A stretch of DNA of 44,064 nt from a virus (taxonomy: Duplodnaviria; Heunggongvirae; Uroviricota; Caudoviricetes). The notes under the pieces were generated by a model. It was not told where the DNA came from and ran no database searches. It saw only the letters and a list, made by a program, of their open reading frames with translations. Made by a program: the position numbers and the translations under genes. The stretch lies in IMG/VR virus record IMGVR_UViG_2690316161_000025; one strand, written 5' to 3'. Each line of letters opens with the position of its first letter. Within the stretch, counting starts at the first letter, position 1. Below, in pieces: positions 8,454 through 43,418 of the stretch.

Positions 8454-8672
8454 ATGGGTAAAGGCTGGAATGCATCCTTTCATCTTGGCAGACGTGAGCG
8501 GCTGCGTCAGGAGGTTTTGCACCGTGTCGCCGGTGGGCCACGGCCTGCGCCCCGCGACTATACCGGTCATGATGGCACCCACGGCAGTTATTACATGAAA
8601 GGCTGGCAGTCAGTTGATATGCCGGAAATTCTTCATCATTGCCTGCTTTACAGGGAGAAACATTATGTCTGA
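8454..8672 (+). CDS. Middle-operon hypothetical protein (72 aa)
   Basis: ORF with SD gggggaaa; lies between mor terminator and C. Confidence 0.4.
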   Translation: MGKGWNASFHLGRRERLRQEVLHRVAGGPRPAPRDYTGHDGTHGSYYMKGWQSVDMPEILHHCLLYREKHYV

Positions 8673-9027
8673 GCGTTCTGCTCGTCAGTGGCCTGATTTT
8701 TTATCGGTGGTATTACTGGCGCTGTTATTGTGGATAAGTCTGTTTTGTGGCTGGCGCGCGCTGATGTTTTGCTGTGCCTCGGTTTTCAGTGTTGCTTTAT
8801 GTGTTGCCGCTGATTGTCTGGATGCGCTGATAATGAGCTGCCGGGTGCCTGAACATTTTGCCCGGTTCGTCTGGCCTCTGACCTGGCTGGGGAGTCTGTC
8901 CGGGCTGGGATTAGCCGTGATGGCAACGTCTCAACTGAAAACGGGTCCTGAGCATGTCATCTGGGCGCTGGCCGGATTGCTGACGTTCTGGCTCTCCTTT
9001 CGTTTTCGCGCTCGTCTGTTCGGGTAA
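8665..9027 (+). CDS. Middle-operon predicted multi-pass membrane protein (120 aa from ATG 8665)
   Basis: SD gggag upstream of ATG 8665; hydrophobic segments LSVVLLALLLWISLFCGW, VFSVALCVAA, LGLAVMATS. Confidence 0.45.
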   Translation: MSERSARQWPDFLSVVLLALLLWISLFCGWRALMFCCASVFSVALCVAADCLDALIMSCRVPEHFARFVWPLTWLGSLSGLGLAVMATSQLKTGPEHVIWALAGLLTFWLSFRFRARLFG

Positions 9028-9036
9028 AGGGGCACC

Positions 9037-9156
9037 ATGTACAGAAAATTCAGTGATGAATGTTTCGGGCCGTCCACGCTGATGAGTGCGATAAAAGTGA
9101 TTGCCCTTGTGGTTCTGATAACCATCAGTGCCGTGGTGTATCTTTCTGTCTGTTAA
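9037..9156 (+). CDS. Candidate 39-aa single-pass membrane peptide (not in ORF track)
   Basis: ATG 9037 with SD aagggg; MYRKFSDECFGPSTLMSAIKVIALVVLITISAVVYLSVC then TAA at 9154-9156. Confidence 0.3.
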   Translation: MYRKFSDECFGPSTLMSAIKVIALVVLITISAVVYLSVC

Positions 9157-9168
9157 CCGGGGGAAAAT

Positions 9169-9591
9169 ATGCAGCATGATTTATTTGAACACGATCCGGC
9201 AATTCGCCAGTTAATCGGACATATTGATAACATCCCGGCCCCGGAACTGGAATCACGCTGGCCCCGTTCGGTGGTTGATCTGATTGATGTTCTGGAAAAC
9301 GAACTGAAACGCCAGAACGTCAGCAATCCCCGTGAGCTTGCCCGTAAACAGGCCGTTGCCCTGTCCTGTTTTCTGGGCGGGCGGCAGTTTTACATCCCCT
9401 GCGGCGATACGATCCTGACCGCGTTACGCGACGATTTGCTTTACTGCCAGTTCAATGGTTGTAACATGGAAGAACTGCGTCGCCAGTATCGCCTGTCCCA
9501 GCCGCAGATCTACCAGATTATTGCCCGCCAGAGAAAGCTGCATACACGACGTCATCAGCCTGATCTGTTCTCACCTGAAAGCCAGAAATAA
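9169..9591 (+). CDS. C: C, late-gene transcriptional activator (140 aa)
   Basis: 140-aa ORF MQHDLFEHDPAIRQLIGHIDN...; paralogous to Mor; last gene of the middle operon. Confidence 0.9.
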   Translation: MQHDLFEHDPAIRQLIGHIDNIPAPELESRWPRSVVDLIDVLENELKRQNVSNPRELARKQAVALSCFLGGRQFYIPCGDTILTALRDDLLYCQFNGCNMEELRRQYRLSQPQIYQIIARQRKLHTRRHQPDLFSPESQK

Positions 9592-9614
9592 CCGGCATCC
9601 TGCCGGTTATTTCC
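9591..9614 (+). terminator. Probable terminator after C
   Basis: Hairpin accggca-tcc-tgccggt followed by T-rich tatttcc. Confidence 0.45.
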
Positions 9615-9682
9615 TGTCACCATAATCCCGCACCTGCCATCTGATTTTTTAGACTGCCATCAGAGCATTTTTTCAGGGAAGC
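9615..9682 (+). promoter_or_regulatory. Plys late promoter region (C-dependent), approximate
   Basis: Intergenic between C terminator and lys; contains tcccgcacct motif (9626-9635) shared with the I upstream region. Confidence 0.4.
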
Positions 9683-10201
9683 ATGATGGCGGGGATACCC
9701 AAAAAACTGAAAGCCGCACTGCTGGCGGCAACGATTGCCGGTGGCGGTGTGGGTGGTTATCAGGAAATGACCCGTCAGTCTCTGATCCATCTGGAAAATA
9801 TCGCTTATATGCCTTACCGCGATATTGCCGGTGTGCTTACGGTCTGTGTGGGACATACCGGGCCGGATATCGAAATGCGCCGTTACAGCCATGCGGAGTG
9901 TATGGCTCTTCTCGACGGTGATTTAAAACCGGTTTATGCGGCAATCGATCGTCTTGTCAGGGTGCCGCTGACGCCATATCAGAAAACGGCGCTGGCAACG
10001 TTTATTTTCAACACCGGTGTTACCGCATTCAGTAAATCAACGCTGCTGAAAAAACTCAATGCCGGTGATTACGCCGGAGCGCGTGACCAGATGGCCCGCT
10101 GGGTGTTTGCCGCAGGCCATAAATGGAAAGGACTGATGAACCGTCGCGAAGTGGAAATGGCTATCTGGAATATCAGGGGGGCGGATGACCTTCGCCAGTA
10201 A
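9683..10201 (+). CDS. lys: Endolysin with N-terminal signal-anchor-release (SAR) domain
   Basis: 172-aa ORF; N-terminal weakly hydrophobic Gly/Ala-rich segment LKAALLAATIAGGGVGGY, then lysozyme-like domain. Confidence 0.85.
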   Translation: MMAGIPKKLKAALLAATIAGGGVGGYQEMTRQSLIHLENIAYMPYRDIAGVLTVCVGHTGPDIEMRRYSHAECMALLDGDLKPVYAAIDRLVRVPLTPYQKTALATFIFNTGVTAFSKSTLLKKLNAGDYAGARDQMARWVFAAGHKWKGLMNRREVEMAIWNIRGADDLRQ

Positions 10202-10571
10202 AAGTTTACTGCTGGCAGCCGTGTTTGCCGCCGTTCTGTCCGGGGTGTTGTGGCACAGGCTGGACAGCACCCGCCACGATAACCAGACGCTGCGCCGTGA
10301 ATTACAGACGGAGCAACAGGCCCGCAACACGGCTGAATGGTTGTTACACGGTCAGGAACAGACGATGCAGGTATTTTCCACTATCCGTGCCGCAAATCGT
10401 GCCGCGCGGCTGGCAGACGAGACAGAACATCATGATGCAAAACAAAAAATTACAACCGCCATTACCGGTGACAATTGCAGCACTCGTCCTGTGCCTGCCG
10501 TTGCTGCTGACAGGTTGCGGGAACTCGAAAAACGCACCCGTGCCATCGGTGGTGATCCTGCCCGAAACTGA
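10185..10571 (+). CDS. Inner-membrane spanin component (i-spanin) candidate
   Basis: N-terminal TM segment SLLLAAVFAAVLSGVLW then charged, helical periplasmic region; located right after endolysin. Confidence 0.55.
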   Translation: MTFASKSLLLAAVFAAVLSGVLWHRLDSTRHDNQTLRRELQTEQQARNTAEWLLHGQEQTMQVFSTIRAANRAARLADETEHHDAKQKITTAITGDNCSTRPVPAVAADRLRELEKRTRAIGGDPARN

Positions 10572-10773
10572 TGCAGAACTGACGGAAGCAACGCCCGTTC
10601 CGCCCATGCCACAGCCCCTGACGTGGGGAGCATCCCTTCTCTGGAATGCTGACCTGTTGATGGCGCTCGGGCAGTGCAACCGCGACAAGGCATCAGTCCG
10701 GGAACAGGAGACCCGAAGGAAAGAAATTTATGAACGAAGACCAGAACCGGGCGGTGGCGCTGCTGCTCGCTGA
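10432..10773 (+). CDS. Outer-membrane lipoprotein spanin component (o-spanin) candidate, overlapping i-spanin in another frame
   Basis: Internal ATG 10432; signal peptide MMQNKKLQPPLPVTIAALVLCLPLLLTGC with lipobox LLTGC; Pro-rich mature part. Confidence 0.5.
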   Translation: MMQNKKLQPPLPVTIAALVLCLPLLLTGCGNSKNAPVPSVVILPETDAELTEATPVPPMPQPLTWGASLLWNADLLMALGQCNRDKASVREQETRRKEIYERRPEPGGGAAAR

Positions 10774-10924
10774 ACTCTGGCAGGGGGATACCCGTGATAT
10801 TCCCCGCCCGGCGGCGTATGACCCGCCTGTATTGTGTGCCGGTTGCGGTCGTGAGCTGCGGCCTGATGTGCTGAGACAGCAGCCGATGGCGAACTACTGC
10901 CACTGGTGCCGTGGAGCAGAATAA
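10730..10924 (+). CDS. Small Cys-containing protein (64 aa, CAGCG...CHWC)
   Basis: ORF with SD gaaggaaag; two Cys pairs suggest zinc ribbon. Confidence 0.4.
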   Translation: MNEDQNRAVALLLAELWQGDTRDIPRPAAYDPPVLCAGCGRELRPDVLRQQPMANYCHWCRGAE

Positions 10925-11223
10925 TGGATTTGATTTCAGTTTTAGCGTTATGGCCTTACCTGTTGCCTGTTGTGGCCGGTGGGGCCGTCTGGGCAATGCG
11001 TCGTAGTTTTGCCAGCACTGAGCGTGTGGAGCGTCTTGAAAACCGGATGACCGAAATGGAAACCCGCTACGCCAGCATCCCTGGCACAGAAGATGTACAC
11101 GAAATGCGCCTGCGAATTGCAGAGCTGTCCGGCGATATCCGGGTGCTGTCCCAGCGGGTGCAGTCATTTTCCCATCAACTGGAGCTGCTGCTTGAAAACG
11201 CAGTAAACCGGAGTAATTCATGA
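10924..11223 (+). CDS. Membrane-anchored coiled-coil protein, lysis-cassette associated
   Basis: ATG 10924 overlapping upstream stop; N-terminal TM MDLISVLALWPYLLPVVAGGAVWA then heptad-like helix. Confidence 0.45.
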   Translation: MDLISVLALWPYLLPVVAGGAVWAMRRSFASTERVERLENRMTEMETRYASIPGTEDVHEMRLRIAELSGDIRVLSQRVQSFSHQLELLLENAVNRSNS

Positions 11224-11510
11224 TTAACGATATTCTGACCGAAGACCGTCGTCTGGTCATCCTGCGTTCCCTGATGGACTGCAATAACGAAGCAAACGAA
11301 TCCATTCTTCAGGACTGTCTGGATGCATACGGACACAACGTTTCCCGCGATGTGGTTCGCGGCCAGATTGACTGGCTGGCAGAGCAGCAACTGGTCACCG
11401 TGGAAAACCTGCGCGGCTTTTATGTCGTAACGCTGACCTCCCGAGGTCAGGATGTGGCAGAAGGTCGTGCCCGCGTTGCCGGTGTCAAGCGTCCTCGTCC
11501 CCGTGCATGA
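11220..11510 (+). CDS. Hypothetical protein (96 aa), possibly winged-helix
   Basis: ORF with SD ccggag; immediately upstream of terminase genes. Confidence 0.45.
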   Translation: MINDILTEDRRLVILRSLMDCNNEANESILQDCLDAYGHNVSRDVVRGQIDWLAEQQLVTVENLRGFYVVTLTSRGQDVAEGRARVAGVKRPRPRA

Positions 11511-11521
11511 CAGGAGGCGTG

Positions 11522-12097
11522 ATGGACAGGAAAACACGGGGCCGGGCTTCAAAAGTGGATTTATTGCCGGAAAACGTACGTAAAACGCTGCATGAAATGC
11601 TGCGTGATAAAGCGATCCCACAGGCCCGCATTCTGGAAGAAATTAACGCACTGATTGAAGACGCTGGCCTGCCGGATGAGATGAAACTCTCCCGTTCCGG
11701 TCTGAACCGTTACGCGACGAACGTCGAGCAGGTAGGCCATAACCTGCGACAGATGCGTGAAATGACGTCAGCACTGACCGCAGAACTTGGCGACAAGCCA
11801 ATGGGAGAAACCACAAAGCTGATTCTGGAAATGGCCCGCAGCCAGCTTTTTAAGGCCATGATGCGGCAAATCGAAAACCCGGAATCTGACGTGGATATTG
11901 ACCTGCTGAAAAATGCCATGCTGGCGGCACAGCGTCTGGAATCCACGGCAATGTCCAGCCACCGGCGCGAGAAAGAAATCCGCCAGGCATTCGCAGAAGA
12001 AGCGGCAAACGCCGTCAGTGAAGAACTGCGCGGGCAGGATGGCATCAGCGAAGAGCTGGAGCAGCGTATCCGTGATGTGCTGCTGGGTAAGGCATGA
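11522..12097 (+). CDS. D: Terminase small subunit candidate (Mu D)
   Basis: ATG 11522 with strong SD caggaggcg (ORF track start 11507); position directly upstream of large terminase. Confidence 0.6.
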   Translation: MDRKTRGRASKVDLLPENVRKTLHEMLRDKAIPQARILEEINALIEDAGLPDEMKLSRSGLNRYATNVEQVGHNLRQMREMTSALTAELGDKPMGETTKLILEMARSQLFKAMMRQIENPESDVDIDLLKNAMLAAQRLESTAMSSHRREKEIRQAFAEEAANAVSEELRGQDGISEELEQRIRDVLLGKA

Positions 12098-30667: not shown

Positions 30668-32022
30668 TGTTTTATATTGATAACGACAGCGGCGTAACCG
30701 TCATGCCGCCCGTATCCGCCCAGCGTAGTGCTATCGTTCGCTGGTTTTCAGAAGGTGACGGGAATAATGTTATCACATGGCCCGGCATGGACTGGTTTAA
30801 TATTGTGCAGGCGGAGTTATTAAACACGCTGGAAGAAGCCGGTATTCAACCGGATAAAACAAAATTAAACCAGCTTGCACTATCCATTAAAGCCATTATG
30901 AGCAATAACGCACTGCTGATAAAAAATAACCTCAGCGAAATTAAAACTGCCGGGGCATCAGCACAGCGTACAGCACGTGAAAATCTGGATATTTATGATG
31001 CCAGCCTGAACAAAAAAGGACTCGTTCAGCTAACCAGTGCCACTGACAGCCCCAGTGAAACGCTGGCAGCCACCGCAAAAGCGGTGAAAATTGCGATGGA
31101 TAATGCCAGTGCCCGTCTGGCAAAAGACCGGAACGGAGCAGATATTCCCAATAAGCCGCTGTTTATCCAAAACCTCGGTTTACAGGAAACGGTAAACAAG
31201 GCTGGTAACGCTGTTCAGCGTTCTGGCGATACAATGACCGGAAAACTGAATCTACCACAGACATCTGCATTCGGCGTTGATACCGATAATGCACTGGGTG
31301 GTAATTCCATTACTCTCGGAGATAACGACACTGGTATTAAACAGGGCGGAGACGGTGTCCTTTTATTCTATTCAAATGGACAACTGGCATTTGGGCTTCA
31401 ACCCGCATCTGCTGATTTTTATAAGCGGGTTGCATACATTCCTCAGGGAATAATTCCTGATGGAAGTGGCGCATTTGCAGACCAGTTGAATAATGCCACC
31501 GCGCCTTTTGTTCAGACGCAGTTTGCCTGGAATCCCACTCCTGGTGGTCATTACGTGCCGATAGTTAAGGGCTTGTCCATTCGCAATGGACAGGGCTATC
31601 CCGGCGCGGTCAGCTTTGGTTATTTGCTGACAGAACAGTATGGATTTCCGGTTCCATGTATTCATATGCGTGGCGATGGCGGTAATGATGCTTTATGGCA
31701 GTTTAACCCGAACGATAAATCTTTTATTTCACCGGGTGCTCTTGTTGCGGGTGGCATCATTTATAACACCGATGGAAATATATTTGGCGGGTGTTGGGGT
31801 TCAAATTTAGCTGATTATCTCAATAGCACATATGTAAGAGACATTCGACTTGGTAGCGCAGAATCAATATCAGCATGGCGAGGCCCTGGTTACTGGGATA
31901 CTTCTGGATATGTTCTGACCGCAGCCGGAAACAGCAACACCGATGAATTTATTGATACATTAACCAGAAGGCCTATTCAGAAGTTGATTGGTGGGACATA
32001 TTATAACGTTGTGAGTATTTGA
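30667..32022 (+). CDS. S: Tail fibre protein S (constant part Sc 30667-~31176 fused in frame to variable part Sv inside the G segment)
   Basis: 451-aa ORF; gixL lies inside the coding sequence at codons FIQNLGLQE. Confidence 0.85.
31163..31188. other. gixL, left Gin recombination site
   Basis: ttatccaaaacc-tc-ggtttacaggaa; inverted copy at 34355-34380. Confidence 0.8.
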
Positions 32023-32023
32023 C

Positions 32024-32551
32024 ATGATGCATTTAAAAAACATTAAAGCAGGGAACCCCAAAACACCTGAACAATACCAGTTAACCAAAAAAGCTGGAGT
32101 GGTCTGGCTTTATACTGAAGATGGTAAAAACTGGTACGAAGAACAAAAAAACTTTCAACCAGATACTATAAAAATTGCATACGATAAAAATAATGTGATT
32201 GTTACCGTAAGCAAAGATGTTTCAACTATTAACCCGGAAGGTTTAAGTGTTGTTGAAGTATCCGATATTACGGCAAATCGTCGCGCAGACAATAACGGAA
32301 ACTGGATGTTTCTGGATGGTAAAGTAGTAAAGCGGGAATATACAAAACAGGAGCTGCAACAGCAGGCAGAGTTACAAAAAGCCGCTTTGCTTTCCGAAGC
32401 GGAGTCTGTGATTCAACCGCTGGAACGTGCTGTCAGGCTGAATATGGCAACTAATGAGGAACGCGCACGACTGGAGTCATGGGAACGCTACAGTGTTCTG
32501 GTCAGCCGTGTGGATACGGCAAATCCTGAATGGCCACAAAAGCCTGAATAA
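32024..32551 (+). CDS. U: Tail fibre assembly protein U, 175 aa
   Basis: ATG one base after S stop; paralogue of minus-strand U'. Confidence 0.85.
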
Positions 32552-32556
32552 AAATT

Positions 32557-32576
32557 AAGGCCCGATAGCGGGCCTT
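32557..32576. terminator. Bidirectional hairpin between convergent U and U'
   Basis: aaggccc-gatagc-gggcctt; A/T run on the U' side. Confidence 0.45.
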
Positions 32577-32579
32577 GTC

Positions 32580-33113
32580 TCATTCTGGTTGTTCCGGGAA
32601 TGTTACAGGAAGAACAGAGGTATCTGTGGCATCAACCTGCTGCATGTATAACATCCAGTTAATGAGTCTTTGCCTGTCTGAATCGCTGATAATTCCCAGC
32701 GCAAGCTGTGTTTGCCAGCACTGCGTTTCCTCTCTGGCCTGTCGCAGCAAAATCTGTTTCTGAATTTCAGCCAGTTGACGTAGTTCTTCATCAGTCCGGG
32801 GGCGTTTCATGACCTTGCCATCCTGAAACACCCAGTCACCGAGAATATCGGCCCGGCGATTCGCTGTCGTGTCGGGTAATTCGACAACGCTCATTCCTTC
32901 CGGGTTAATAGACGACACATCTTTTTCAATATAGCGAATGATACCTCTGTCATCGTAAGCGATTTTTAGTGTGTCTGCCTGAAAGGCTTTTTGTGCCTCA
33001 TACCAGTTCTTACCATCTTCAGCGTAAAGCCAGATAACTCCGTGTTTCTTTGTTAACTCATACTGTTCCAGTGTTTTAGCGTTACCCGCTTTTATGTTCT
33101 TTAAGTGCATCAT
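32580..33113 (-). CDS. U': Alternative tail fibre assembly protein U' (177 aa), silent in this orientation
   Basis: Minus-strand [26 protein letters not shown]... paralogous to U. Confidence 0.85.
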   Translation of the reverse strand: MMHLKNIKAGNAKTLEQYELTKKHGVIWLYAEDGKNWYEAQKAFQADTLKIAYDDRGIIRYIEKDVSSINPEGMSVVELPDTTANRRADILGDWVFQDGKVMKRPRTDEELRQLAEIQKQILLRQAREETQCWQTQLALGIISDSDRQRLINWMLYMQQVDATDTSVLPVTFPEQPE

Positions 33114-33114
33114 A

Positions 33115-34362
33115 TTAAACGCTCGCTACATTATACCAGGTGCCATTTATATACTTTTGAACGGGTCTGTAATAAACGCCCGCTATATTATCGGCAGAGT
33201 TGGACCCTGTATCCTGAACATTAATACCAGACAATACATGACCTGACGGGCACTGGAAATTCCATGTTTGCCAGTTGTTCACACCATGATATTGCTGTGA
33301 ACCAAGACGAACATCTTTCACATAGCGGGAATCAAAATTCCCCCAGTTGCTGGGTTGTATCTGACCGTTAACAGCAAATATCACCGAGTTATCTGTATTT
33401 CGCTGACTATAGAAATGCCAGCCTGAATCATCACCAAGCTCTGCAACAGTTGGTCTTGACGAATTTCCCCACAAGCTAAATGATGCATTACGGGCAGCGG
33501 TATTTGCACTTGAAAGTGTGAAGAACTTACTTTCCCCAGCCTGAATACCCTTTAATGATCTTGCTGAACCATTTATAAAGCGGAATACATGCACACCATT
33601 AGCATAAGCATCCAGCACCCCATCACCATTTTGTTTAAACCCGGTATCGTTATCTCCTAAAACTATTGAATTTCCACCCAGGGCATTAGCCGTTCCAATC
33701 CCCAGATTTCCGCTAAAAATGGCATTAATACCGAGTATTGAGTGAGAACAATAAAACCCTCGCCCATTGTTAAAATCCAGAATGGCTTGTGCGTTCGTGC
33801 TTTCTGTCGCGGGATTAGTTGCTCCCCACTTATATGTTGTTTGACCGACAGTATAATCCTGAGTTGGAACAATAACCGTTAGCCCTTCTTCAGCAGAAAC
33901 CCGCACAGGAAAAGCCCTGCCTTCAACGTAAAAAACGCTGCATACATCATCTTCTTTAAGGCTTGTTACAATGGAATGGATTGCGCGCTCATTAGTCTGA
34001 TACGTCGAAAAATAACCTGCCGCATATGAACCACGATCAGTCCAGCCACCAGGCATTACCATTCCATTGAATTCGCAGTTATTCATTGCGTAATCACTAC
34101 TGGCACATGTGGTCGTTATAATCACTCTGGAAGCCAGCTCGCCAGTGCCGCCTGTGGAACGCCGGAAAATAACTGGATACCACTTTCCACCAATTGCATT
34201 AGACGGCGCATTAAATGCGTACTGCCGCATTCCTTTTTTCTTATCCACCTCGCCTTTGCTGTAAACATTAATGTTACTCAGGAAGCGATCCTTATCAGGA
34301 ATATCCGCGCCGTTCTGGTTTTTCTGTAATGCGCCAGAAGCCTGATTTACCGTTTCCTGCAA
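33115..34362 (-). CDS. S': S' variable part (S'v): promoterless, start-less alternative tail-fibre C-terminal module, expressed only after G inversion
   Basis: Minus-strand frame is open across gixR and would be in frame with Sc after inversion (..LQETVN.. shared at the gix site). Confidence 0.8.
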   Translation of the reverse strand: MQETVNQASGALQKNQNGADIPDKDRFLSNINVYSKGEVDKKKGMRQYAFNAPSNAIGGKWYPVIFRRSTGGTGELASRVIITTTCASSDYAMNNCEFNGMVMPGGWTDRGSYAAGYFSTYQTNERAIHSIVTSLKEDDVCSVFYVEGRAFPVRVSAEEGLTVIVPTQDYTVGQTTYKWGATNPATESTNAQAILDFNNGRGFYCSHSILGINAIFSGNLGIGTANALGGNSIVLGDNDTGFKQNGDGVLDAYANGVHVFRFINGSARSLKGIQAGESKFFTLSSANTAARNASFSLWGNSSRPTVAELGDDSGWHFYSQRNTDNSVIFAVNGQIQPSNWGNFDSRYVKDVRLGSQQYHGVNNWQTWNFQCPSGHVLSGINVQDTGSNSADNIAGVYYRPVQKYINGTWYNVASV

Positions 34363-34380
34363 ACCGAGGTTTTAGATAAT
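34355..34380. other. gixR, right Gin recombination site
   Basis: Reverse complement reads ttatctaaaacc-tc-ggtttgcaggaa. Confidence 0.8.
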
Positions 34381-34433
34381 GGCTGTTTCCGGCCTGCATG
34401 GCATGATTTGCGCTTTTAAACGGGAGATCCAGA

Positions 34434-35027
34434 GTGCTGATTGGCTATGTAAGGGTATCAACAAATGACCAGAATACAGACCTGCAACGAAACGCTCTTG
34501 TTTGTGCAGGATGTGAACAAATATTTGAAGATAAATTAAGCGGAACAAGGACAGACAGACCTGGATTAAAACGCGCTTTAAAGCGCCTTCAAAAAGGTGA
34601 CACACTTGTTGTCTGGAAACTGGATCGCCTCGGGCGAAGCATGAAACATTTGATTTCTCTCGTAGGGGAATTACGAGAGCGAGGGATTAATTTTCGCAGT
34701 CTTACTGACAGTATTGATACGTCATCTCCAATGGGGCGTTTTTTCTTCCACGTTATGGGTGCCCTGGCTGAGATGGAACGAGAACTAATCATCGAGCGAA
34801 CGATGGCTGGACTTGCTGCCGCCAGAAATAAAGGCCGTATTGGTGGGCGACCACCTAAACTAACCAAAGCGGAATGGGAGCAGGCCGGGCGTTTATTAGC
34901 ACAAGGAATCCCCCGCAAGCAGGTTGCATTGATCTACGATGTGGCCCTGTCAACTCTGTATAAAAAACACCCCGCGAAACGAACGCATATAGAAAACGAC
35001 GATCGAATCAATCAAATCGATCGGTAA
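34434..35027 (+). CDS. gin: Gin serine recombinase (DNA invertase)
   Basis: GTG start 34434 with SD gggag; product MLIGYVRVSTNDQNTDLQRNAL... with catalytic Ser at YVRVS; resolvase/invertase family. Confidence 0.95.
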   Translation: MLIGYVRVSTNDQNTDLQRNALVCAGCEQIFEDKLSGTRTDRPGLKRALKRLQKGDTLVVWKLDRLGRSMKHLISLVGELRERGINFRSLTDSIDTSSPMGRFFFHVMGALAEMERELIIERTMAGLAAARNKGRIGGRPPKLTKAEWEQAGRLLAQGIPRKQVALIYDVALSTLYKKHPAKRTHIENDDRINQIDR

Positions 35028-35035
35028 TACAGATC
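35001..35035. promoter_or_regulatory. Three clustered Dam GATC sites upstream of the mom promoter (methylation-sensitive regulatory region)
   Basis: GATC at 35001, 35019, 35032 spanning the gin stop codon. Confidence 0.6.
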
Positions 35036-35039
35036 GATT

Positions 35040-35109
35040 ATGTCTCAATAACCACACTCAACCCATGATGTTTTTTAAGATAGTGGCGAATTGATGCAAA
35101 GGAGGTGAG
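35040..35109 (+). promoter_or_regulatory. Pmom promoter / C-activator binding region, approximate
   Basis: Intergenic between gin and com; precedes SD aaggaggtgag of com. Confidence 0.45.
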
Positions 35110-35298
35110 ATGAAATCAATTCGCTGTAAAAACTGCAACAAACTGTTATTTAAGGCGGATTCCTTTGATCACATTGAAATCAGGTGTCCGCGTTGCAAAC
35201 GTCACATCATAATGCTGAATGCCTGCGAGCATCCCATGGAGAAACATTGTGGGAAAAGAGAAAAAATCACGCATTCTGACGAAACCGTGCGTTATTGA
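35110..35298 (+). CDS. com: Com, zinc-finger translational activator of mom (62 aa)
   Basis: [32 protein letters not shown]... with CxxC...CxxC; overlaps mom 5' end. Confidence 0.9.
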
Positions 35299-35944
35299 GT
35301 ATGAAGGCCAGATTGTTGGCTATGGTTCAAAGGAGCTGCGCGTTGAAACCATATCTTGCTGGCTGGCCCGCACAATTATTCAGACAAAGCACTATTCCCG
35401 CCGTTTTGTGAATAACTCTTACCTCCACCTGGGAGTATTCAGCGGACGCGATCTGGTTGGCGTTCTCCAGTGGGGATATGCCCTTAACCCCAACTCAGGT
35501 CGTCGTGTCGTGCTTGAAACGGATAACCGGGGCTATATGGAGTTGAACCGCATGTGGCTACACGACGACATGCCCCGCAACTCTGAATCACGGGCCATCA
35601 GTTATGCACTGAAAACCATAAGGTTACTGTATCCGTCAGTGGAGTGGGTTCAGTCTTTTGCAGACGAACGCTGCGGACGTGCTGGCGTTGTGTATCAGGC
35701 GTCAAATTTTGATTTTATTGGCAGCCATGAAAGCACGTTCTACGAGCTGGATGGTGAGTGGTATCACGAGATAACGATGAACGCGATTAAACGCGGTGGA
35801 CAACGAGGCGTGTATTTACGGGCTAATAAAGAGCGTGCCGTGGTGCACAAATTTAATCAGTATCGCTACATCAGGTTCCTGAACAAGCGAGCAAGGAAGC
35901 GACTAAATACCAAGCTATTCAAGGTTCAGCCATACCCTAAGTGA
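35219..35944 (+). CDS. mom: Mom DNA modification protein (adenine modification); true start may be GTG at 35249
   Basis: ORF overlapping the com 3' end in another frame; last gene before the Mu right end. Confidence 0.85.
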
Positions 35945-36059: not shown

Positions 36060-36157
36060 TGCGCAAAATTCACGCCACTGTCATATTTGTGAGCTACACG
36101 GGCATGTCGGTTGTACAAAAAATGTGAAGAGGAACAAATTTTTCCGCACGTTAGAGA

Positions 36158-36192
36158 CAAAAAAACCGCCTCAGGCAACATACCGGAGACGG
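36158..36192 (-). terminator. Probable rho-independent terminator downstream of pqiC
   Basis: On the minus strand, imperfect hairpin ccgtctccgg...cctgaggcgg followed by ttttttt. Confidence 0.45.
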
Positions 36193-36214
36193 TTATATTT
36201 ACAAATCTTTATAA

Positions 36215-36778
36215 TTAAGGTAGACGCTTTATCTCTTGTGCAATAGAAGCGGCTTCCTGACTCCAGACACCGGCCAGCACTTTAACCATCTCATCGTAAC
36301 CATCCTGAGTTTGCACTCCTTCCAGACGGAACGGACGTTTGATCAGTTGTCCCTGGTGGTTCAACAGCCACTCACCACTGACAATGACCTTGCCATCATA
36401 GCGACCGTTAAACTCCGTTACGGTAACATTGAGCGTGTCCTGGGCGCTTCCCAGAGGCTGGGAGGCAACCACCCAGCCGGGCAGTTGCGTACTCAGGTTG
36501 GCAACCAGGGTGTTGCGCAACTGTTGATCCAACGGGCTGGCCCACAAGTTGTTGTTGGCAATCACATACTTCACATCACTGGTTTGATAAACCACACCAT
36601 TCCCCGCCAGATAGTCAGGAACAGTGATCTGCTCTACCCATAACAGACGATTGCCCTGGCTGGCGGTACTTTGTGTACCGCTCTGCACCACAGGTAACTG
36701 GTAATAGTTTTTATTAATTTCGCCGGAGCTGCATCCGGCCAGCCACAGTGCTGCAATCGTCACTAGCCACTTTTTCAT
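36215..36778 (-). CDS. pqiC: PqiC (YmbA) lipoprotein of the Pqi intermembrane transport system, 187 aa
   Basis: MKKWLVTIAALWLAGCSSG... with lipobox LAGC; ATGA overlap with pqiB stop. Confidence 0.85.
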   Translation of the reverse strand: MKKWLVTIAALWLAGCSSGEINKNYYQLPVVQSGTQSTASQGNRLLWVEQITVPDYLAGNGVVYQTSDVKYVIANNNLWASPLDQQLRNTLVANLSTQLPGWVVASQPLGSAQDTLNVTVTEFNGRYDGKVIVSGEWLLNHQGQLIKRPFRLEGVQTQDGYDEMVKVLAGVWSQEAASIAQEIKRLP

Positions 36779-38415
36779 TGTTTCGCCCTCTTCGGCTCTG
36801 GATCTTTTTTGTCCTTCGCTTCAAATACCAGCGCGTTACTCTTCTCATTGAGCGTTTTCAGCACCGGTTGCAGTTCTCGCAACACCTGATCAAGGCGCTG
36901 CATATCCGCCACCATCTTGTTGTAGGCTGCGGAGCCAGGCTGGAAGCCCTGCATGCTGCGATTCAATTCACGCAACGTTGACTGCATATCCGTCGGCAAC
37001 TGCTGCATCGACTGGCTAGCGAGGATCTTGTTCATGCTATCCAGCGTCGTTTGCAGGTTTTTCATTGTGCGCTGACTTTCAGAAAGCGTACTGGTTGCCT
37101 GTTCAATCATCGGATTCAATGGCAGTTTGTTGATCTTATCCAACGCTTCCATCAGTCGTTGCTGGATTTGCGCCAGGCCGCCGCTAACGGTCGGGATAAT
37201 CTGATAACCATTAAATTCACGAATACCGGTTATTGCAGGCGTATTTGGATAGAAATCGAGATCAACATACAGTGCACCAGTGACCAGGTTTCCGGTTTTC
37301 AGCGATCCGCGTAAACCACGTTTCAACAATTCGCCAAGGTGCTCAACAACATCCGCATTTTCGCCAAGCTGCATTTTCAGCCGCTCTGGCTCGATACGAA
37401 TCAGTACCGGAATACGGTAATCATCGTTAAATGTCTGACGCATATTCGGCGCAAAGAATGGCACTTTGCTTACGGTACCCAGGCGAATACCCCGGAACTC
37501 TACCGGAGCTCCCGGTTGCAGACCGCGTACCGAATCTTTAAAGAACATCAGATAATCAATGTGATCGGTGTACAACGAATCCTGAATGCTCTTCTGATCA
37601 TCATACAAAACGAAAGCTGTTTTCGGTGCCACTGGCTGCCCTAAATCCAGACCTTCCGGCACATCAAAGCTGACACCGCCACTCAGCAGCGTTGTCAATG
37701 AGCCCATCTCCACACGCATCCCTGCTGACGTCAGATCAACCGCAATGCCACTATCTTTCCAGAAGCGAACATTGTTGGTCACCAGTCGGTCATAAGGTGC
37801 ATTGATGAACAGTTGATAGCTGATATTGCGTTTTTGTGTATCGAAGGTGCTGGTTTCAACCGAACCTACCCGATAGCCACGGAACAGCACCGGATCTCCT
37901 GGCGAGAGCTGCCCGGCTTTTTTGCTATCGAGAATCACACGGATACCTTTCGCATCAGGCGGGGCCAACGGTGGCGAGTCCAGCAAATCGTATTTATCCA
38001 TTTTGCTGCCTTTCGCGCCTGGCTGCAGTTCGATATAAACTCCAGACAGCAGCGTTCCCAGGCCGCTAATCCCTTCGCGACCAATCTGCGGTTTCACCAC
38101 CCAAAAGACGGTGTCTTTATGCAGCAATTTTTCCATACCGGAATTCAGCCGCGCTTTGATTTCAACGTGCGTCAAATCATCAGCCAGTGTGGCGCTTTCA
38201 ACCACGCCGACGTCAACGCTACGGCTTTTAATGGTGGTTTTGCCACCTTCAATTCCTTCCGCATTCGCGGTGATCAGGGTCACTTCCGGTCCCTGATGGC
38301 TGTAATGATAAAAAAGAACCCAGGCCCCAATGAGCGCCGTGACGATAGGAAATATCCACACGGGAGACCAGTTCTTCACTTTCTGGATTTTGGCTTCCCC
38401 ATTATTAGATTCCAT
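36775..38415 (-). CDS. pqiB: PqiB, MCE-domain periplasm-spanning protein (546 aa from MESNNGEAK...)
   Basis: Large minus-strand ORF with N-terminal TM segment and repeated MCE-like regions; ORF track start 38475 is an upstream extension. Confidence 0.85.
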   Translation of the reverse strand: MESNNGEAKIQKVKNWSPVWIFPIVTALIGAWVLFYHYSHQGPEVTLITANAEGIEGGKTTIKSRSVDVGVVESATLADDLTHVEIKARLNSGMEKLLHKDTVFWVVKPQIGREGISGLGTLLSGVYIELQPGAKGSKMDKYDLLDSPPLAPPDAKGIRVILDSKKAGQLSPGDPVLFRGYRVGSVETSTFDTQKRNISYQLFINAPYDRLVTNNVRFWKDSGIAVDLTSAGMRVEMGSLTTLLSGGVSFDVPEGLDLGQPVAPKTAFVLYDDQKSIQDSLYTDHIDYLMFFKDSVRGLQPGAPVEFRGIRLGTVSKVPFFAPNMRQTFNDDYRIPVLIRIEPERLKMQLGENADVVEHLGELLKRGLRGSLKTGNLVTGALYVDLDFYPNTPAITGIREFNGYQIIPTVSGGLAQIQQRLMEALDKINKLPLNPMIEQATSTLSESQRTMKNLQTTLDSMNKILASQSMQQLPTDMQSTLRELNRSMQGFQPGSAAYNKMVADMQRLDQVLRELQPVLKTLNEKSNALVFEAKDKKDPEPKRAKQ

Positions 38416-38419
38416 ACTG

Positions 38420-39288
38420 TCAGGACTCCTCATGCTCTGATTCAGGTTGACGATCCCACGACAAACGCGGGTCAAACGTCATAGCAGAAAACATTGTCAT
38501 TATGACGACTAAAGCAAACATTAATGCACCCATTGCCGGATAAATACTCATTAAACCTCCCATACGCACCAGCGCCGAGAGCACCGCGATAACGAAAACG
38601 TCAATCATCGACCAGCGGCCTACAAACTCAACAACTTCATAAATCAAATGCATTCTTTCACTGTCGCGCTTGCCATGCCCTTTGGCATCCCAACACAGCC
38701 ACGCGATGGCGATCATCTTTAACGTTGGCACCATAATACTGGCCAGAAAGATCACCGCAGCGACGGGATAAGAGCCTTCGCTCCATAACAGAATGACCCC
38801 AGCGAGAATCGTCGACGGCATCTTCGAGCCTAATAAATCCGTCACCATGATGGGCAAAATATTAGCCGGAAGATACAGCATGATGGACGTTACAAGCAGC
38901 GCGAGTGTCCACTGCAGGCTGTTTCTACGCCGAACGTACCCTTTGGTACTACAACGCGGGCACACGGGTTCATCAGCAGGAAGGATTGCCGTACAACAGG
39001 AGCACGAACGCAGCCCCTGACGTATCCCCGTGACGCCTGGTTTTAGCGGCTGGCGCAGTTCTGGCATCGGGGCGATGTCGTCCCATAACCAGCGACGATC
39101 AACGCACTGAAAAGCGCGCAGTTGCAGGACACAAAATAAACACCAGGGGAGAAAGCTGCTGCCTACCCCAATGCTGCCGTAAGCCATCAGTTTAACGAAA
39201 CTGACCAGCACACCAGCGAGGAAAATCTCCGCCATTCCCCAGGTTTTGAGTTGAAAAAGCACCCGTGCCAGTTGCTCTTTTAAACGGA
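38420..39288 (-). pseudogene. pqiA: pqiA, 3' portion only (about 289 C-terminal codons); 5' end replaced by Mu-derived sequence
   Basis: Minus-strand frame encodes multi-pass membrane protein with CxxC...CxxC (CSCCTA...CPRCS); the first 10 codons of the apparent ORF ([11 protein letters not shown]) are read from Mu gix/S sequence. Confidence 0.8.
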
Positions 39289-39308
39289 AAAACCTCGGTT
39301 TACAGGAA
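39283..39308. other. Chimeric gix-like site: pqiA-derived left half (aacggaaaaacc) joined to gixL core and right half
   Basis: Identity to 31169 onward begins at 39289; central tc and right half ggtttacaggaa identical to gixL. Confidence 0.75.
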
Positions 39309-40142
39309 ACGGTAAACAAGGCTGGTAACGCTGTTCAGCGTTCTGGCGATACAATGACCGGAAAACTGAATCTACCACAGACATCTGCATTCGGCGTTGA
39401 TACCGATAATGCACTGGGTGGTAATTCCATTACTCTCGGAGATAACGACACTGGTATTAAACAGGGCGGAGACGGTGTCCTTTTATTCTATTCAAATGGA
39501 CAACTGGCATTTGGGCTTCAACCCGCATCTGCTGATTTTTATAAGCGGGTTGCATACATTCCTCAGGGAATAATTCCTGATGGAAGTGGCGCATTTGCAG
39601 ACCAGTTGAATAATGCCACCGCGCCTTTTGTTCAGACGCAGTTTGCCTGGAATCCCACTCCTGGTGGTCATTACGTGCCGATAGTTAAGGGCTTGTCCAT
39701 TCGCAATGGACAGGGCTATCCCGGCGCGGTCAGCTTTGGTTATTTGCTGACAGAACAGTATGGATTTCCGGTTCCATGTATTCATATGCGTGGCGATGGC
39801 GGTAATGATGCTTTATGGCAGTTTAACCCGAACGATAAATCTTTTATTTCACCGGGTGCTCTTGTTGCGGGTGGCATCATTTATAACACCGATGGAAATA
39901 TATTTGGCGGGTGTTGGGGTTCAAATTTAGCTGATTATCTCAATAGCACATATGTAAGAGACATTCGACTTGGTAGCGCAGAATCAATATCAGCATGGCG
40001 AGGCCCTGGTTACTGGGATACTTCTGGATATGTTCTGACCGCAGCCGGAAACAGCAACACCGATGAATTTATTGATACATTAACCAGAAGGCCTATTCAG
40101 AAGTTGATTGGTGGGACATATTATAACGTTGTGAGTATTTGA
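39289..40142 (+). CDS. S: Sv variable part of tail fibre S (copy 2), no upstream constant part or start
   Basis: Identical to 31169-32022; frame enters from pqiA-antisense sequence. Confidence 0.7.
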
Positions 40143-40143
40143 C

Positions 40144-40671
40144 ATGATGCATTTAAAAAACATTAAAGCAGGGAACCCCAAAACACCTGAACAATACCAG
40201 TTAACCAAAAAAGCTGGAGTGGTCTGGCTTTATACTGAAGATGGTAAAAACTGGTACGAAGAACAAAAAAACTTTCAACCAGATACTATAAAAATTGCAT
40301 ACGATAAAAATAATGTGATTGTTACCGTAAGCAAAGATGTTTCAACTATTAACCCGGAAGGTTTAAGTGTTGTTGAAGTATCCGATATTACGGCAAATCG
40401 TCGCGCAGACAATAACGGAAACTGGATGTTTCTGGATGGTAAAGTAGTAAAGCGGGAATATACAAAACAGGAGCTGCAACAGCAGGCAGAGTTACAAAAA
40501 GCCGCTTTGCTTTCCGAAGCGGAGTCTGTGATTCAACCGCTGGAACGTGCTGTCAGGCTGAATATGGCAACTAATGAGGAACGCGCACGACTGGAGTCAT
40601 GGGAACGCTACAGTGTTCTGGTCAGCCGTGTGGATACGGCAAATCCTGAATGGCCACAAAAGCCTGAATAA
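40144..40671 (+). CDS. U: Tail fibre assembly protein U (copy 2)
   Basis: Identical to 32024-32551. Confidence 0.85.
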
Positions 40672-40699
40672 AAATTAAGGCCCGATAGCGGGCCTTGTC

Positions 40700-41233
40700 T
40701 CATTCTGGTTGTTCCGGGAATGTTACAGGAAGAACAGAGGTATCTGTGGCATCAACCTGCTGCATGTATAACATCCAGTTAATGAGTCTTTGCCTGTCTG
40801 AATCGCTGATAATTCCCAGCGCAAGCTGTGTTTGCCAGCACTGCGTTTCCTCTCTGGCCTGTCGCAGCAAAATCTGTTTCTGAATTTCAGCCAGTTGACG
40901 TAGTTCTTCATCAGTCCGGGGGCGTTTCATGACCTTGCCATCCTGAAACACCCAGTCACCGAGAATATCGGCCCGGCGATTCGCTGTCGTGTCGGGTAAT
41001 TCGACAACGCTCATTCCTTCCGGGTTAATAGACGACACATCTTTTTCAATATAGCGAATGATACCTCTGTCATCGTAAGCGATTTTTAGTGTGTCTGCCT
41101 GAAAGGCTTTTTGTGCCTCATACCAGTTCTTACCATCTTCAGCGTAAAGCCAGATAACTCCGTGTTTCTTTGTTAACTCATACTGTTCCAGTGTTTTAGC
41201 GTTACCCGCTTTTATGTTCTTTAAGTGCATCAT
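40700..41233 (-). CDS. U': U' (copy 2)
   Basis: Identical to 32580-33113. Confidence 0.85.
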   Translation of the reverse strand: MMHLKNIKAGNAKTLEQYELTKKHGVIWLYAEDGKNWYEAQKAFQADTLKIAYDDRGIIRYIEKDVSSINPEGMSVVELPDTTANRRADILGDWVFQDGKVMKRPRTDEELRQLAEIQKQILLRQAREETQCWQTQLALGIISDSDRQRLINWMLYMQQVDATDTSVLPVTFPEQPE

Positions 41234-41234
41234 A

Positions 41235-42482
41235 TTAAACGCTCGCTACATTATACCAGGTGCCATTTATATACTTTTGAACGGGTCTGTAATAAACGCC
41301 CGCTATATTATCGGCAGAGTTGGACCCTGTATCCTGAACATTAATACCAGACAATACATGACCTGACGGGCACTGGAAATTCCATGTTTGCCAGTTGTTC
41401 ACACCATGATATTGCTGTGAACCAAGACGAACATCTTTCACATAGCGGGAATCAAAATTCCCCCAGTTGCTGGGTTGTATCTGACCGTTAACAGCAAATA
41501 TCACCGAGTTATCTGTATTTCGCTGACTATAGAAATGCCAGCCTGAATCATCACCAAGCTCTGCAACAGTTGGTCTTGACGAATTTCCCCACAAGCTAAA
41601 TGATGCATTACGGGCAGCGGTATTTGCACTTGAAAGTGTGAAGAACTTACTTTCCCCAGCCTGAATACCCTTTAATGATCTTGCTGAACCATTTATAAAG
41701 CGGAATACATGCACACCATTAGCATAAGCATCCAGCACCCCATCACCATTTTGTTTAAACCCGGTATCGTTATCTCCTAAAACTATTGAATTTCCACCCA
41801 GGGCATTAGCCGTTCCAATCCCCAGATTTCCGCTAAAAATGGCATTAATACCGAGTATTGAGTGAGAACAATAAAACCCTCGCCCATTGTTAAAATCCAG
41901 AATGGCTTGTGCGTTCGTGCTTTCTGTCGCGGGATTAGTTGCTCCCCACTTATATGTTGTTTGACCGACAGTATAATCCTGAGTTGGAACAATAACCGTT
42001 AGCCCTTCTTCAGCAGAAACCCGCACAGGAAAAGCCCTGCCTTCAACGTAAAAAACGCTGCATACATCATCTTCTTTAAGGCTTGTTACAATGGAATGGA
42101 TTGCGCGCTCATTAGTCTGATACGTCGAAAAATAACCTGCCGCATATGAACCACGATCAGTCCAGCCACCAGGCATTACCATTCCATTGAATTCGCAGTT
42201 ATTCATTGCGTAATCACTACTGGCACATGTGGTCGTTATAATCACTCTGGAAGCCAGCTCGCCAGTGCCGCCTGTGGAACGCCGGAAAATAACTGGATAC
42301 CACTTTCCACCAATTGCATTAGACGGCGCATTAAATGCGTACTGCCGCATTCCTTTTTTCTTATCCACCTCGCCTTTGCTGTAAACATTAATGTTACTCA
42401 GGAAGCGATCCTTATCAGGAATATCCGCGCCGTTCTGGTTTTTCTGTAATGCGCCAGAAGCCTGATTTACCGTTTCCTGCAA
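41235..42482 (-). CDS. S': S'v (copy 2)
   Basis: Identical to 33115-34362. Confidence 0.8.
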   Translation of the reverse strand: MQETVNQASGALQKNQNGADIPDKDRFLSNINVYSKGEVDKKKGMRQYAFNAPSNAIGGKWYPVIFRRSTGGTGELASRVIITTTCASSDYAMNNCEFNGMVMPGGWTDRGSYAAGYFSTYQTNERAIHSIVTSLKEDDVCSVFYVEGRAFPVRVSAEEGLTVIVPTQDYTVGQTTYKWGATNPATESTNAQAILDFNNGRGFYCSHSILGINAIFSGNLGIGTANALGGNSIVLGDNDTGFKQNGDGVLDAYANGVHVFRFINGSARSLKGIQAGESKFFTLSSANTAARNASFSLWGNSSRPTVAELGDDSGWHFYSQRNTDNSVIFAVNGQIQPSNWGNFDSRYVKDVRLGSQQYHGVNNWQTWNFQCPSGHVLSGINVQDTGSNSADNIAGVYYRPVQKYINGTWYNVASV

Positions 42483-42500
42483 ACCGAGGTTTTAGATAAT
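42475..42500. other. gixR (copy 2)
   Basis: Identical to 34355-34380. Confidence 0.8.
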
Positions 42501-42553
42501 GGCTGTTTCCGGCCTGCATGGCATGATTTGCGCTTTTAAACGGGAGATCCAGA

Positions 42554-43147: not shown

Positions 43148-43229
43148 TACAGATCGATTATGTCTCAATAACCACACTCAACCCATGATGTTTTTTAAGA
43201 TAGTGGCGAATTGATGCAAAGGAGGTGAG

Positions 43230-43418
43230 ATGAAATCAATTCGCTGTAAAAACTGCAACAAACTGTTATTTAAGGCGGATTCCTTTGATCACATTGAAAT
43301 CAGGTGTCCGCGTTGCAAACGTCACATCATAATGCTGAATGCCTGCGAGCATCCCATGGAGAAACATTGTGGGAAAAGAGAAAAAATCACGCATTCTGAC
43401 GAAACCGTGCGTTATTGA
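43230..43418 (+). CDS. com: Com (copy 2)
   Basis: Identical to 35110-35298. Confidence 0.9.

Follow-up and report, generated by a model that had tools for sequence, protein, structure and literature searches.

The cassette at positions 9683–11223 of the window, the 44,064-nt stretch of viral DNA that we analysed (IMG/VR record IMGVR_UViG_2690316161_000025), corresponds by sequence to genes 22, 23, 23.1, 24 and 25 of phage Mu, an already-known lysis cluster. It is almost certainly the late lysis cassette of a Mu variant and operates in the way demonstrated experimentally for Mu. The DNA is 98.5% identical to Mu genes 22–25, and the cassette is therefore not a chance pattern. The cassette itself brings nothing new, the holin-less, releasin-dependent mechanism having been published in 2022. 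The one addition to what is known about it concerns gp24, which looks like a diverged zinc finger of the TraR/DksA type rather than a lysis protein.

Positions 1–36059 of the window belong to a Mu-type phage, Mu-like throughout and ~98% identical to Mu itself. All five ORFs lie at the coordinates given in the initial annotation, and the GenBank record of Mu (AF083977.1) names them, in order, SAR endolysin, i-spanin, o-spanin, hypothetical protein and releasin. Identical residues number 169 of 171 in gp22, 123 of 128 in gp23 and 108 of 113 in gp23.1; gp24 and gp25 are 100% identical to their Mu counterparts. Genes, gene order, overlaps and promoter are those of the Mu cassette (AF083977.1; Chamblee et al., 2022, mBio, PMC9239132), from which the window differs by point substitutions only: V15A and S78G in gp22, five per protein in the spanins gp23 and gp23.1, and two base changes in the promoter Plys. 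Among database records, Escherichia phage PhiR68_1 comes closest (99.6%). None of the functional residues of gp22 or gp23.1 is altered, and the substitutions in the endolysin and the two spanin proteins would be expected to leave their behaviour unchanged. Nothing in the sequence of the cassette speaks against the core holin-less mechanism. Automatic annotation of related records leaves most of these genes "hypothetical", and the correct names can be transferred to them. Long ORFs on the opposite strand of the cassette (291, 114, 97 and 91 aa) had no Pfam or PHROG match and were taken as shadow ORFs. The features of the region are listed in Table 1.

Elsewhere in the window, at 39288/39289, is a host/Mu junction. 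Its origin by a clean Gin (gix) crossover is unsupported: the native pqiA sequence diverges 6–7 nt left of the gix centre. An apparent tandem duplication of 8.1 kb, to which this junction and the one at 36059/36060 are relevant, may be genuine or may have arisen in assembly.

Table 1. Features of the lysis region and of the genes and control elements upstream of it (window coordinates).
Feature	Position	Strand	Basis
gp19, membrane protein with four TMDs	8665–9027		
gp20, membrane protein with one TMD	9037–9156		
C, late-gene activator (Mor/C family)	9169–9591	+	Pfam Mor, E 5.7e-33; three residues differ from Mu C; Mu annotation
Terminator hairpin that closes the middle operon (aaccggcatcctgccggtt plus T-run)	9589–9612	+	Position transferred from Mu (TransTermHP feature of its annotation)
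Plys, C-dependent late promoter	9609–9675	+	Position transferred from Mu (PMID 2522923 feature of its annotation)
gp22 (Lys), SAR endolysin, GH24-type muramidase	9686–10201	+	PF00959, E 2.3e-37
gp23, i-spanin	10185–10571	+	PHROG 214, E 6.4e-35; TMD with KD 1.93; five residues differ from Mu gp23
gp23.1, o-spanin, outer-membrane lipoprotein	10432–10773	+	PF23793 LysC, E 7.7e-15; lipobox; five residues differ from Mu
gp24, C4 zinc-ribbon protein, probably a degenerate TraR/DksA-type zinc finger	10730–10924	+	100% identical to Mu gp24; CxxC-x17-CxxC; gene position; hhalign
gp25, releasin (DUF2730), predicted N-out/C-in single TMD and cytoplasmic helical hairpin	10924–11223	+	100% identical to Mu gp25; PF10805

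The control region upstream of the cassette is likewise that of Mu. The terminator closing the middle operon is identical in sequence, and Plys differs at two nucleotides (9640 and 9666). Plys has no sigma-70 consensus site, as expected for an activator-dependent promoter. The activator C would switch on Plys, whereupon genes 22-23-23.1-24-25, which open the first late operon, would be transcribed.

The first gene of the cassette encodes a protein with the Phage_lysozyme domain (PF00959; 128.5 bits against a cut-off of 22.3) and the catalytic triad E-x8-D-x5-T of the muramidases (E37, D46 and T52); a PHROG endolysin family was also matched in the cassette. The initial annotation started gp22 at 9683, the first of two tandem ATG codons. 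In Mu the protein is annotated from the second of them, at 9686, a start that yields the published numbering of the lysines K6 and K7. Both are kept in the window, as is K9. Residues 6–26 (KKLKAALLAATIAGGGVGGYQ) include five glycines, five alanines and one threonine (11 of 21 residues), and the best 17-residue Kyte-Doolittle (KD) mean in this segment is 1.32, under the usual threshold for a TMD. Such weak hydrophobicity is what a SAR domain should show. One of the two substitutions relative to Mu, V15A, falls inside it and lowers its hydrophobicity slightly (KD of 1.32 versus 1.46). Gp22 therefore combines the hallmarks by which we assessed SAR endolysins, a muralytic domain with its triad and a weakly hydrophobic N-terminal segment, rich in Gly, Ala and Thr, that follows basic residues. 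The reading of the cassette as having a SAR-type endolysin and no obvious holin gene agrees with the annotation of AF083977.1 and with the experiments of Chamblee et al. (2022). In these, Mu gp22 had a membrane-tethered form that could be released by membrane depolarisation, a pinholin or chloroform, and 22::cam and 25::cam Mu lysogens failed to lyse on time (PMC9239132).

The next two genes have the features of a two-component spanin. Gp23, which had been read as an i-spanin-like transmembrane protein following the endolysin, has an N-terminal TMD (residues 4–22, over a 19-residue KD window), matches the PHROG "Rz-like spanin" family and is the i-spanin of AF083977.1. The lipoprotein ORF reported at 10432, in another frame and extending past the gp23 stop, is borne out as the o-spanin. 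It matches PF23793 ("Rz1-like LysC"; 55 bits, cut-off 27), is so named in AF083977.1, and carries an LTGC lipobox with Cys29 as the lipidated position (the LLTGC noted initially spans residues 25–29) and a glycine, not an aspartate, at +2. Its mature part is short (85 residues) and rich in proline (10 residues). The gene begins inside gp23, overlaps it out of frame for 140 nt and continues for 202 nt beyond its stop. An i-spanin with a TMD, an o-spanin with a lipobox and a short Pro-rich mature protein, and an out-of-frame overlap are together what we looked for in the overlapped class of spanins. Spanin architectures are classed as overlapped (P2) or embedded (lambda). Gp23 and gp23.1 resemble both lambda Rz/Rz1 and P2 LysB/LysC in pairing an inner-membrane TMD protein with a small lipoprotein of the outer membrane that is rich in proline and encoded in a different frame; the helical periplasmic domain of the inner-membrane member in those systems was also counted as shared with gp23. 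The overlapped arrangement of LysB/LysC is that of gp23/gp23.1, whereas the embedded arrangement of Rz/Rz1 differs from it, the o-spanin gene here running past the i-spanin stop. In Mu, a 23.1 amber mutant yields spherical cells that stay unlysed when Mg2+ stabilises the outer membrane and are rescued by lambda RzRz1 (PMC9239132).

The last gene encodes gp25, a 99-residue protein with all 99 residues as in Mu and a full-length match to DUF2730 (PF10805; E 2.5e-13, 50.4 bits, cut-off 24.9). It has one TMD at about residues 4–22, followed by M-R-R at 24–26 with the RR junction at 25–26, and the positive-inside rule predicts an N-out/C-in topology. The AlphaFold model consists of two long helices (10–49 and 56–97), and the predicted cytoplasmic part (73 residues) contains 12 acidic residues, nine serines and two histidines. 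[quoted passage not shown] Releasins of this type are further marked, in transposable phages, by a gene that lies no more than five genes after that of the endolysin and by a SAR endolysin whose positions 6 and 7 are basic; gp25 is encoded by the fourth gene after lys, and its gp22 partner has K6 and K7. Furthermore, gp22 and gp25 alone are sufficient for lysis, at ~50 min and without gp24, and substituting K6A or K7A in gp22 abolishes the dependence on gp25 (PMC9239132).

Sequence identity, domain content and sequence hallmarks come from the present analysis; the mechanism that follows transcription comes from the literature on near-identical proteins. Gp22 would be exported and held at the inner membrane by its weakly hydrophobic SAR domain, and the two cytoplasmic lysines K6 and K7 would lock it there. 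With no holin involved, escape of the SAR domain would be promoted by gp25, a type I membrane protein whose helical domain lies in the cytoplasm. The freed gp22 would refold into an active muramidase (E37/D46/T52) and degrade the peptidoglycan, after which the gp23/gp23.1 spanin complex would disrupt the outer membrane.

The initial annotation proposed that the 10924–11223 product could act as a holin or a lysis regulator. The second of these roles is the one borne out, as the releasin (PMC9239132), and the first falls on the lack of DNP-triggered lethality. A holin function is suggested by the small size and single TMD of gp25 and by the location of its gene, in a late lysis cassette that also encodes a SAR endolysin close by. 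Indeed, the SAR endolysin of phage 21 is released by a pinholin, and the S21-68 pinholin can release Mu gp22 (PMC9239132). That gp25 is itself a holin or pinholin depolarising the membrane to free the endolysin, as in phage 21 or P1, is nevertheless highly improbable, and we reject it on published experiments. DNP triggered no lethality with the identical Mu gp25, singly or combined with gp19 and gp20; it delayed Mu lysis instead of triggering it, and gp25 had no effect on growth (PMC9239132). Moreover, the gp25 dependence maps to the cytoplasmic K6 and K7 of gp22 and not to membrane energisation (PMC9239132).

The same DNP experiments bear on the proposal of Samanta et al. (as cited in PMC9239132) that gp19 and gp20 are a holin-antiholin pair, which would make the cassette a conventional one. 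Both proteins are small and strongly hydrophobic and are encoded just upstream of the endolysin, gp19 being identical to that of Mu and gp20 differing at two residues. Against the proposal, neither was lethal on DNP triggering, alone or together (PMC9239132), both are middle rather than late genes, and the published data show none of the delay or loss of lysis that the proposal would predict for a clean double deletion of 19–20. We reject the pair on this published evidence and give it only the slimmest chance of being correct. The cassette also resembles the phage 21 (R21/S21-68) and P1 (Lyz) systems, whose endolysin is likewise exported and anchored through an N-terminal SAR domain of weak hydrophobicity. 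Unlike in those systems, there is no pinholin here, release depends on a membrane protein with a cytoplasmic domain, the releasin, and on K6/K7 of the endolysin, and depolarisation is not the trigger of lysis.

The fourth gene encodes gp24, a protein of 64 aa that is annotated as hypothetical in GenBank and for which a literature search found no publication. It had been listed as a Cys-pair protein of the cassette; the ORF is confirmed, with two Cys pairs, and gp24 is dispensable for lysis in reconstitution experiments, in which gp22 and gp25 lyse cells by themselves (PMC9239132). The pairs, C36xxC39 and C57xxC60, form a CxxC-x17-CxxC motif with the spacing of TraR. Most likely, gp24 derives, by divergence and shortening, from the zinc-finger protein of TraR/DksA type whose gene lies directly upstream of DUF2730 in most Mu-like phages.

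The bridge between gp24 and TraR comes from gene context and not from homologue searches. In 72 of 80 DUF2730 loci from IMG/VR, the end of a C4 ORF abuts the start of DUF2730 and often overlaps it, and the finger sequences form a graded series. Forms like gp24 accompany relatives of gp25 at 63–100% identity, and canonical TraR-like forms accompany relatives at ≤42%. E. coli Mu-like prophages are collinear with the cassette gene for gene and have a PF01258 protein in the gp24 slot, and phage HS6 encodes a "DksA-like zinc-finger protein" immediately upstream of DUF2730. Alignment of gp24-like with PF01258-positive proteins in hhalign (83%, E 8.9e-6) placed the fingers in register, with a score (30.9) above those of all 200 column shuffles in which the Cys columns were kept fixed (mean 15.8, maximum 27.8). 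A Foldseek search with a single-sequence model of gp24 ranked TraR first (E 0.25) and many DksA chains high; none of these matches was significant, and they lend weak support. A profile search of the PDB also retrieved a DksA protein, at a non-significant E of 0.12.

Direct searches of protein families with gp24 were uninformative, whether in Pfam at E up to 10, in NCBIfam, in PHROGs (which returned only a family of unknown function) or with phmmer against the PDB. PF01258 itself gave no match to gp24 even at E up to 10; it matched one of nine gp24-like sequences (E 0.035) versus all 11 canonical neighbours. A word-indexed homologue search found five relatives of gp24, and an exhaustive one, over 1.8 billion representatives, yielded just three genuine short relatives, the other matches being long repetitive proteins. 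On these results, the gp24-like form is confined to close relatives of Mu. The search seeded with a Mu-like TraR protein returned close relatives only and no bridge to gp24. C4 zinc ribbons can also converge, which counts against a TraR ancestry.

Like the members of the TraR/DksA family (F TraR, lambda Orf73 and P2 Orf82; PF01258), gp24 is small, has an N-terminal helix (residues 3–17 in the model) that begins with acidic sequence, and carries the CxxC-x17-CxxC motif with a conserved proline in the same place; its gene also occupies the slot that PF01258 genes fill in other Mu-like phages. Unlike the members of the family, it fails PF01258, has a valine in place of the conserved arginine of the finger and has a degenerate DxxDxA motif, the equivalent position reading E3-D4-Q5-N6-R7-A8 (ExxNxA). 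The substitutions D3N and D6N weaken lambda Orf73, and D6N, which corresponds to the asparagine of gp24, cripples it. It also lacks the C-terminal helix that contacts beta-Si1: four residues follow Cys60, and the model has no helix there. Because of these differences, gp24 should not be filed as a functional TraR.

The recurrent adjacency of a C4 zinc-finger ORF and the DUF2730 start across divergent Mu-like phages, and the co-divergence of the gp24-like/TraR-like and DUF2730 families, could also be read as a sign that the two form a functional lysis module in which gp24 works together with the releasin, for instance as a zinc-ribbon protein that regulates gp25 or the timing of lysis. Such a role would fit a protein that has lost the TraR features needed to regulate RNA polymerase and that is absent from the published account of Mu lysis, which contains no mention of gp24 (PMC9239132). 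We consider it unlikely. Lysis at ~50 min did not need gp24, tight adjacency of genes is normal in phage late operons, and the interaction is conjectured from indirect evidence.

Reading gp24 as a degenerate TraR/DksA-type descendant, paired with the releasin gene across transposable phages, we raise as a speculative and rather doubtful extension that it no longer reprograms RNA polymerase and has acquired another role, possibly in tuning the releasin or lysis timing, or in merely occupying RNA polymerase's secondary channel. If this were true, gp24 would be an unrecognised fifth player in the holin-less lysis of Mu or in its late-gene programme. The link of gp24 to TraR/DksA, together with the widespread zinc-finger/DUF2730 gene pair, provides a small, testable lead that concerns a Mu gene still lacking annotation as well as the mechanism or context of releasins.

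The lysis genes 22, 23, 23.1, 24 and 25 constitute an already characterised lysis system, carried here by a phage nearly identical to Mu. Five tightly packed plus-strand genes (ORF list and sequence) lie where the initial annotation had placed an endolysin, an overlapping spanin pair and two extra small proteins, and its overall interpretation was supported. A purine-rich ribosome-binding stretch precedes all five starts. In a megablast search of phage records, the region 9100-11600 matched 15 records (14 over most of the query), all of them Mu-type, including Escherichia phage PhiR68_1 (99.6% identity), D108 (98.6%) and Mu (98.6%). Mu positions 1099-36717 are collinear with window positions 1-36059. 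Across the 1538 nt of the cassette there are 23 differences from Mu, and two bases differ in the intergenic stretch that carries the terminator downstream of C and the C-dependent late promoter Plys. Only V15A and S78G distinguish gp22 from its Mu counterpart; gp23 and gp23.1 differ at five residues each, and gp24 and gp25 at none.

Lysis cassette and other features of the window (TMD, transmembrane segment)
Feature	Position	Strand	Mu GenBank name	Remarks
gp19	8665-9027			Middle-operon membrane protein, four TMDs; identical to Mu; just upstream of cassette
gp20	9037-9156			Middle-operon membrane protein, one TMD; 2 aa differ from Mu
C	9169-9591			Late activator; R98C, T138S, P139Q relative to Mu C
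gp22	9683/9686-10201	+	SAR endolysin	172/171 aa
gp23	10185-10571	+	i-spanin	128 aa; 17-nt overlap with preceding gene
gp23.1	10432-10773	+	o-spanin (locus Mu_55)	113 aa; other frame; 140-nt overlap with gp23 gene, 202 nt past gp23 stop
gp24	10730-10924	+	hypothetical protein	64 aa; Cys-pair protein
gp25	10924-11223	+	releasin	99 aa; ATG shares 1 base with gp24 stop codon
Antisense ORF	10430-11305	-		291 aa, Arg/Ser/Pro-rich; across gp23.1, gp24 and gp25
G-segment	31212-34297			Invertible; variable parts of tail-fibre genes S/U and S'/U'
Repeat, first copy	31169-35944			4776 bp
Host DNA	36060-39288	-		About 3230 bp; E. coli pqiC-pqiB-pqiA'; right after Mu right end (36059)
Repeat, second copy	39289-44064			100% identical direct repeat of first copy

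The protein hallmarks agree with these names. The endolysin gp22 matches Pfam Phage_lysozyme (E 2.3e-37) and has the catalytic residues E37, D46 and T52. At its N-terminus (MAGIPKKLKAALLAATIAGGGVGGYQ), three lysines precede a Gly/Ala-rich stretch whose best 17-residue Kyte-Doolittle mean is 1.32, below the normal TMD threshold; judged from the sequence, this is the signature of a signal-anchor-release (SAR) domain. V15A falls inside the segment and slightly lowers its hydrophobicity. A real TMD (residues 4-22) is present in gp23, which matches the PHROG 'Rz-like spanin' family (E 6e-35). The o-spanin gp23.1 has the lipobox LTGC (Cys29, Gly at +2) and a Pro-rich mature part of 85 residues, and matches Pfam 'Rz1-like LysC'. 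Above threshold, gp25 matches DUF2730; its TMD (residues 4-22) is followed by Arg-Arg and a predicted cytoplasmic part of 73 residues, 12 of them acidic and 9 Ser. Because a single-sequence AlphaFold model (pLDDT 79) shows two helices, 10-49 and 56-97, with a short loop between them, the initial description of this protein as a TM plus coiled-coil is fair. Long antisense ORFs opposite the cassette have no Pfam or PHROG match, and the 291-aa ORF is therefore taken as a shadow ORF.

Since the proteins are identical or nearly so to those of Mu and keep every residue singled out experimentally (PMC9239132), we have high confidence that the releasin-dependent mechanism would apply to this cassette as well. 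In Mu, deletion of gene 25 abolishes timely lysis, chloroform still releases active gp22, and gp22 and gp25 expressed together are sufficient for cell lysis (PMC9239132). Replacing K6 or K7 of gp22 by Ala removes the need for gp25, and K9A does not; gp25 also aids the release of unrelated SAR endolysins (PMC9239132). The authors of that study named gp25 a 'releasin' and left the biochemistry open, discussing protease, charge-shielding, transient-channel and host-factor models (PMC9239132). Amber mutants in 23.1 show the spherical-cell spanin phenotype and are rescued by lambda RzRz1 (Chamblee et al. 2022, PMC9239132). Dinitrophenol delays Mu lysis, and triggering with it caused no lethality with gp19, gp20 or gp25, none of which acts as a holin; an earlier proposal of gp19/gp20 as a holin-antiholin pair is thus unsupported by experiments (PMC9239132). 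The C protein of the window keeps both sliding-clamp-binding motifs (QHDLF, residues 2-6; QPDLF, residues 130-134) reported in 2026 (PMC12867686).

The G-segment is strongly diverged from Mu: its only megablast match there is a 636-bp piece at 79%, whereas the flanking regions are 97-98% identical. This sequence divergence suggests a different host-range cassette. The repeat begins at the left boundary of the G-segment and takes in gin, com and mom, and together with the host DNA forms an apparent 8.1-kb tandem duplication cut by the window end. Either a genuine rearrangement or an assembly artefact could account for the duplication. A search of 5426 complete E. coli genomes did not find the pqiA/Mu junction. 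This junction lies 6-7 nt left of the gix centre, so a clean Gin crossover was rejected as its origin. Window position 1 corresponds to Mu position 1099 and falls at an ATG, and position 44064 closes the mom stop codon in the second repeat copy; the Mu left end and repressor gene c therefore lie outside the window. We take the ATG to be the ner start codon.

The remaining protein, gp24, is absent from the text of the Mu lysis paper and is dispensable for reconstituted lysis, for which gp22 and gp25 suffice (PMC9239132). Direct searches of Pfam, NCBIfam, PHROGs (a family of unknown function only) and, by phmmer, PDB were uninformative, and the family is tiny (about 3 clusters among 1.8 billion representatives). 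Its four cysteines (CxxC-x17-CxxC) have the spacing of TraR/DksA zinc fingers (TraR sequence checked against PDB 5W1S/6N57). Profiles of gp24-like proteins (n=9) and of PF01258-positive proteins (n=11) aligned with their fingers in register (83% probability, E 8.9e-6), and the score of 30.9 exceeded those of all 200 shuffles of the non-Cys finger columns (mean 15.8, maximum 27.8). TraR was the top Foldseek hit and several DksA chains also ranked high, but none of these hits was significant. Shared ancestry with TraR/DksA zinc-finger proteins is therefore probable. We propose that gp24 not be filed as a functional TraR, because it has no PF01258 match in Pfam, lacks the C-terminal helix and carries ExxNxA at the position of the DxxDxA motif, which TraR homologues require for function (PMC9239242).

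The strongest evidence for the link is gene context. In E. coli Mu-like prophages whose genes run Mor/C, SAR lysozyme, i-spanin, o-spanin (LysC), X, DUF2730, gp26-like and Gp27, X is a 75-aa PF01258 protein. Similarly, an annotated 'DksA-like zinc-finger protein' lies immediately 5' of the DUF2730 gene in Pseudoalteromonas phage HS6, and a dksA/traR gene sits between endolysin and small terminase in Burkholderia phage KS10 (PMC2628397). Scanning a DUF2730 alignment against IMG/VR yielded 80 Mu-like loci (L011-L090), 72 of which have a plus-strand CxxC-x16/17-CxxC ORF ending at the DUF2730 start (x16 in L026-L032; motif missing in L041/42, L074 and L077-L081). The short gp24-like form accompanies DUF2730 proteins 63-100% identical to gp25, and canonical PF01258 TraR-like proteins accompany those at most 42% identical. 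The finger sequences grade from the Mu form (CAGCGRELRPDVLRQQPMANYCHWC) through loci L039 (CAGCGRPIAPSVLAVQPMATHCHYC) and L043 (CEDCRHRIAPARLAVLPQARCCVAC) to the canonical form (CADCGGEIPAARLVAVPDAIRCVNC). The small remaining interest of the cassette lies in gp24 and the conserved zinc-finger/DUF2730 gene pair.
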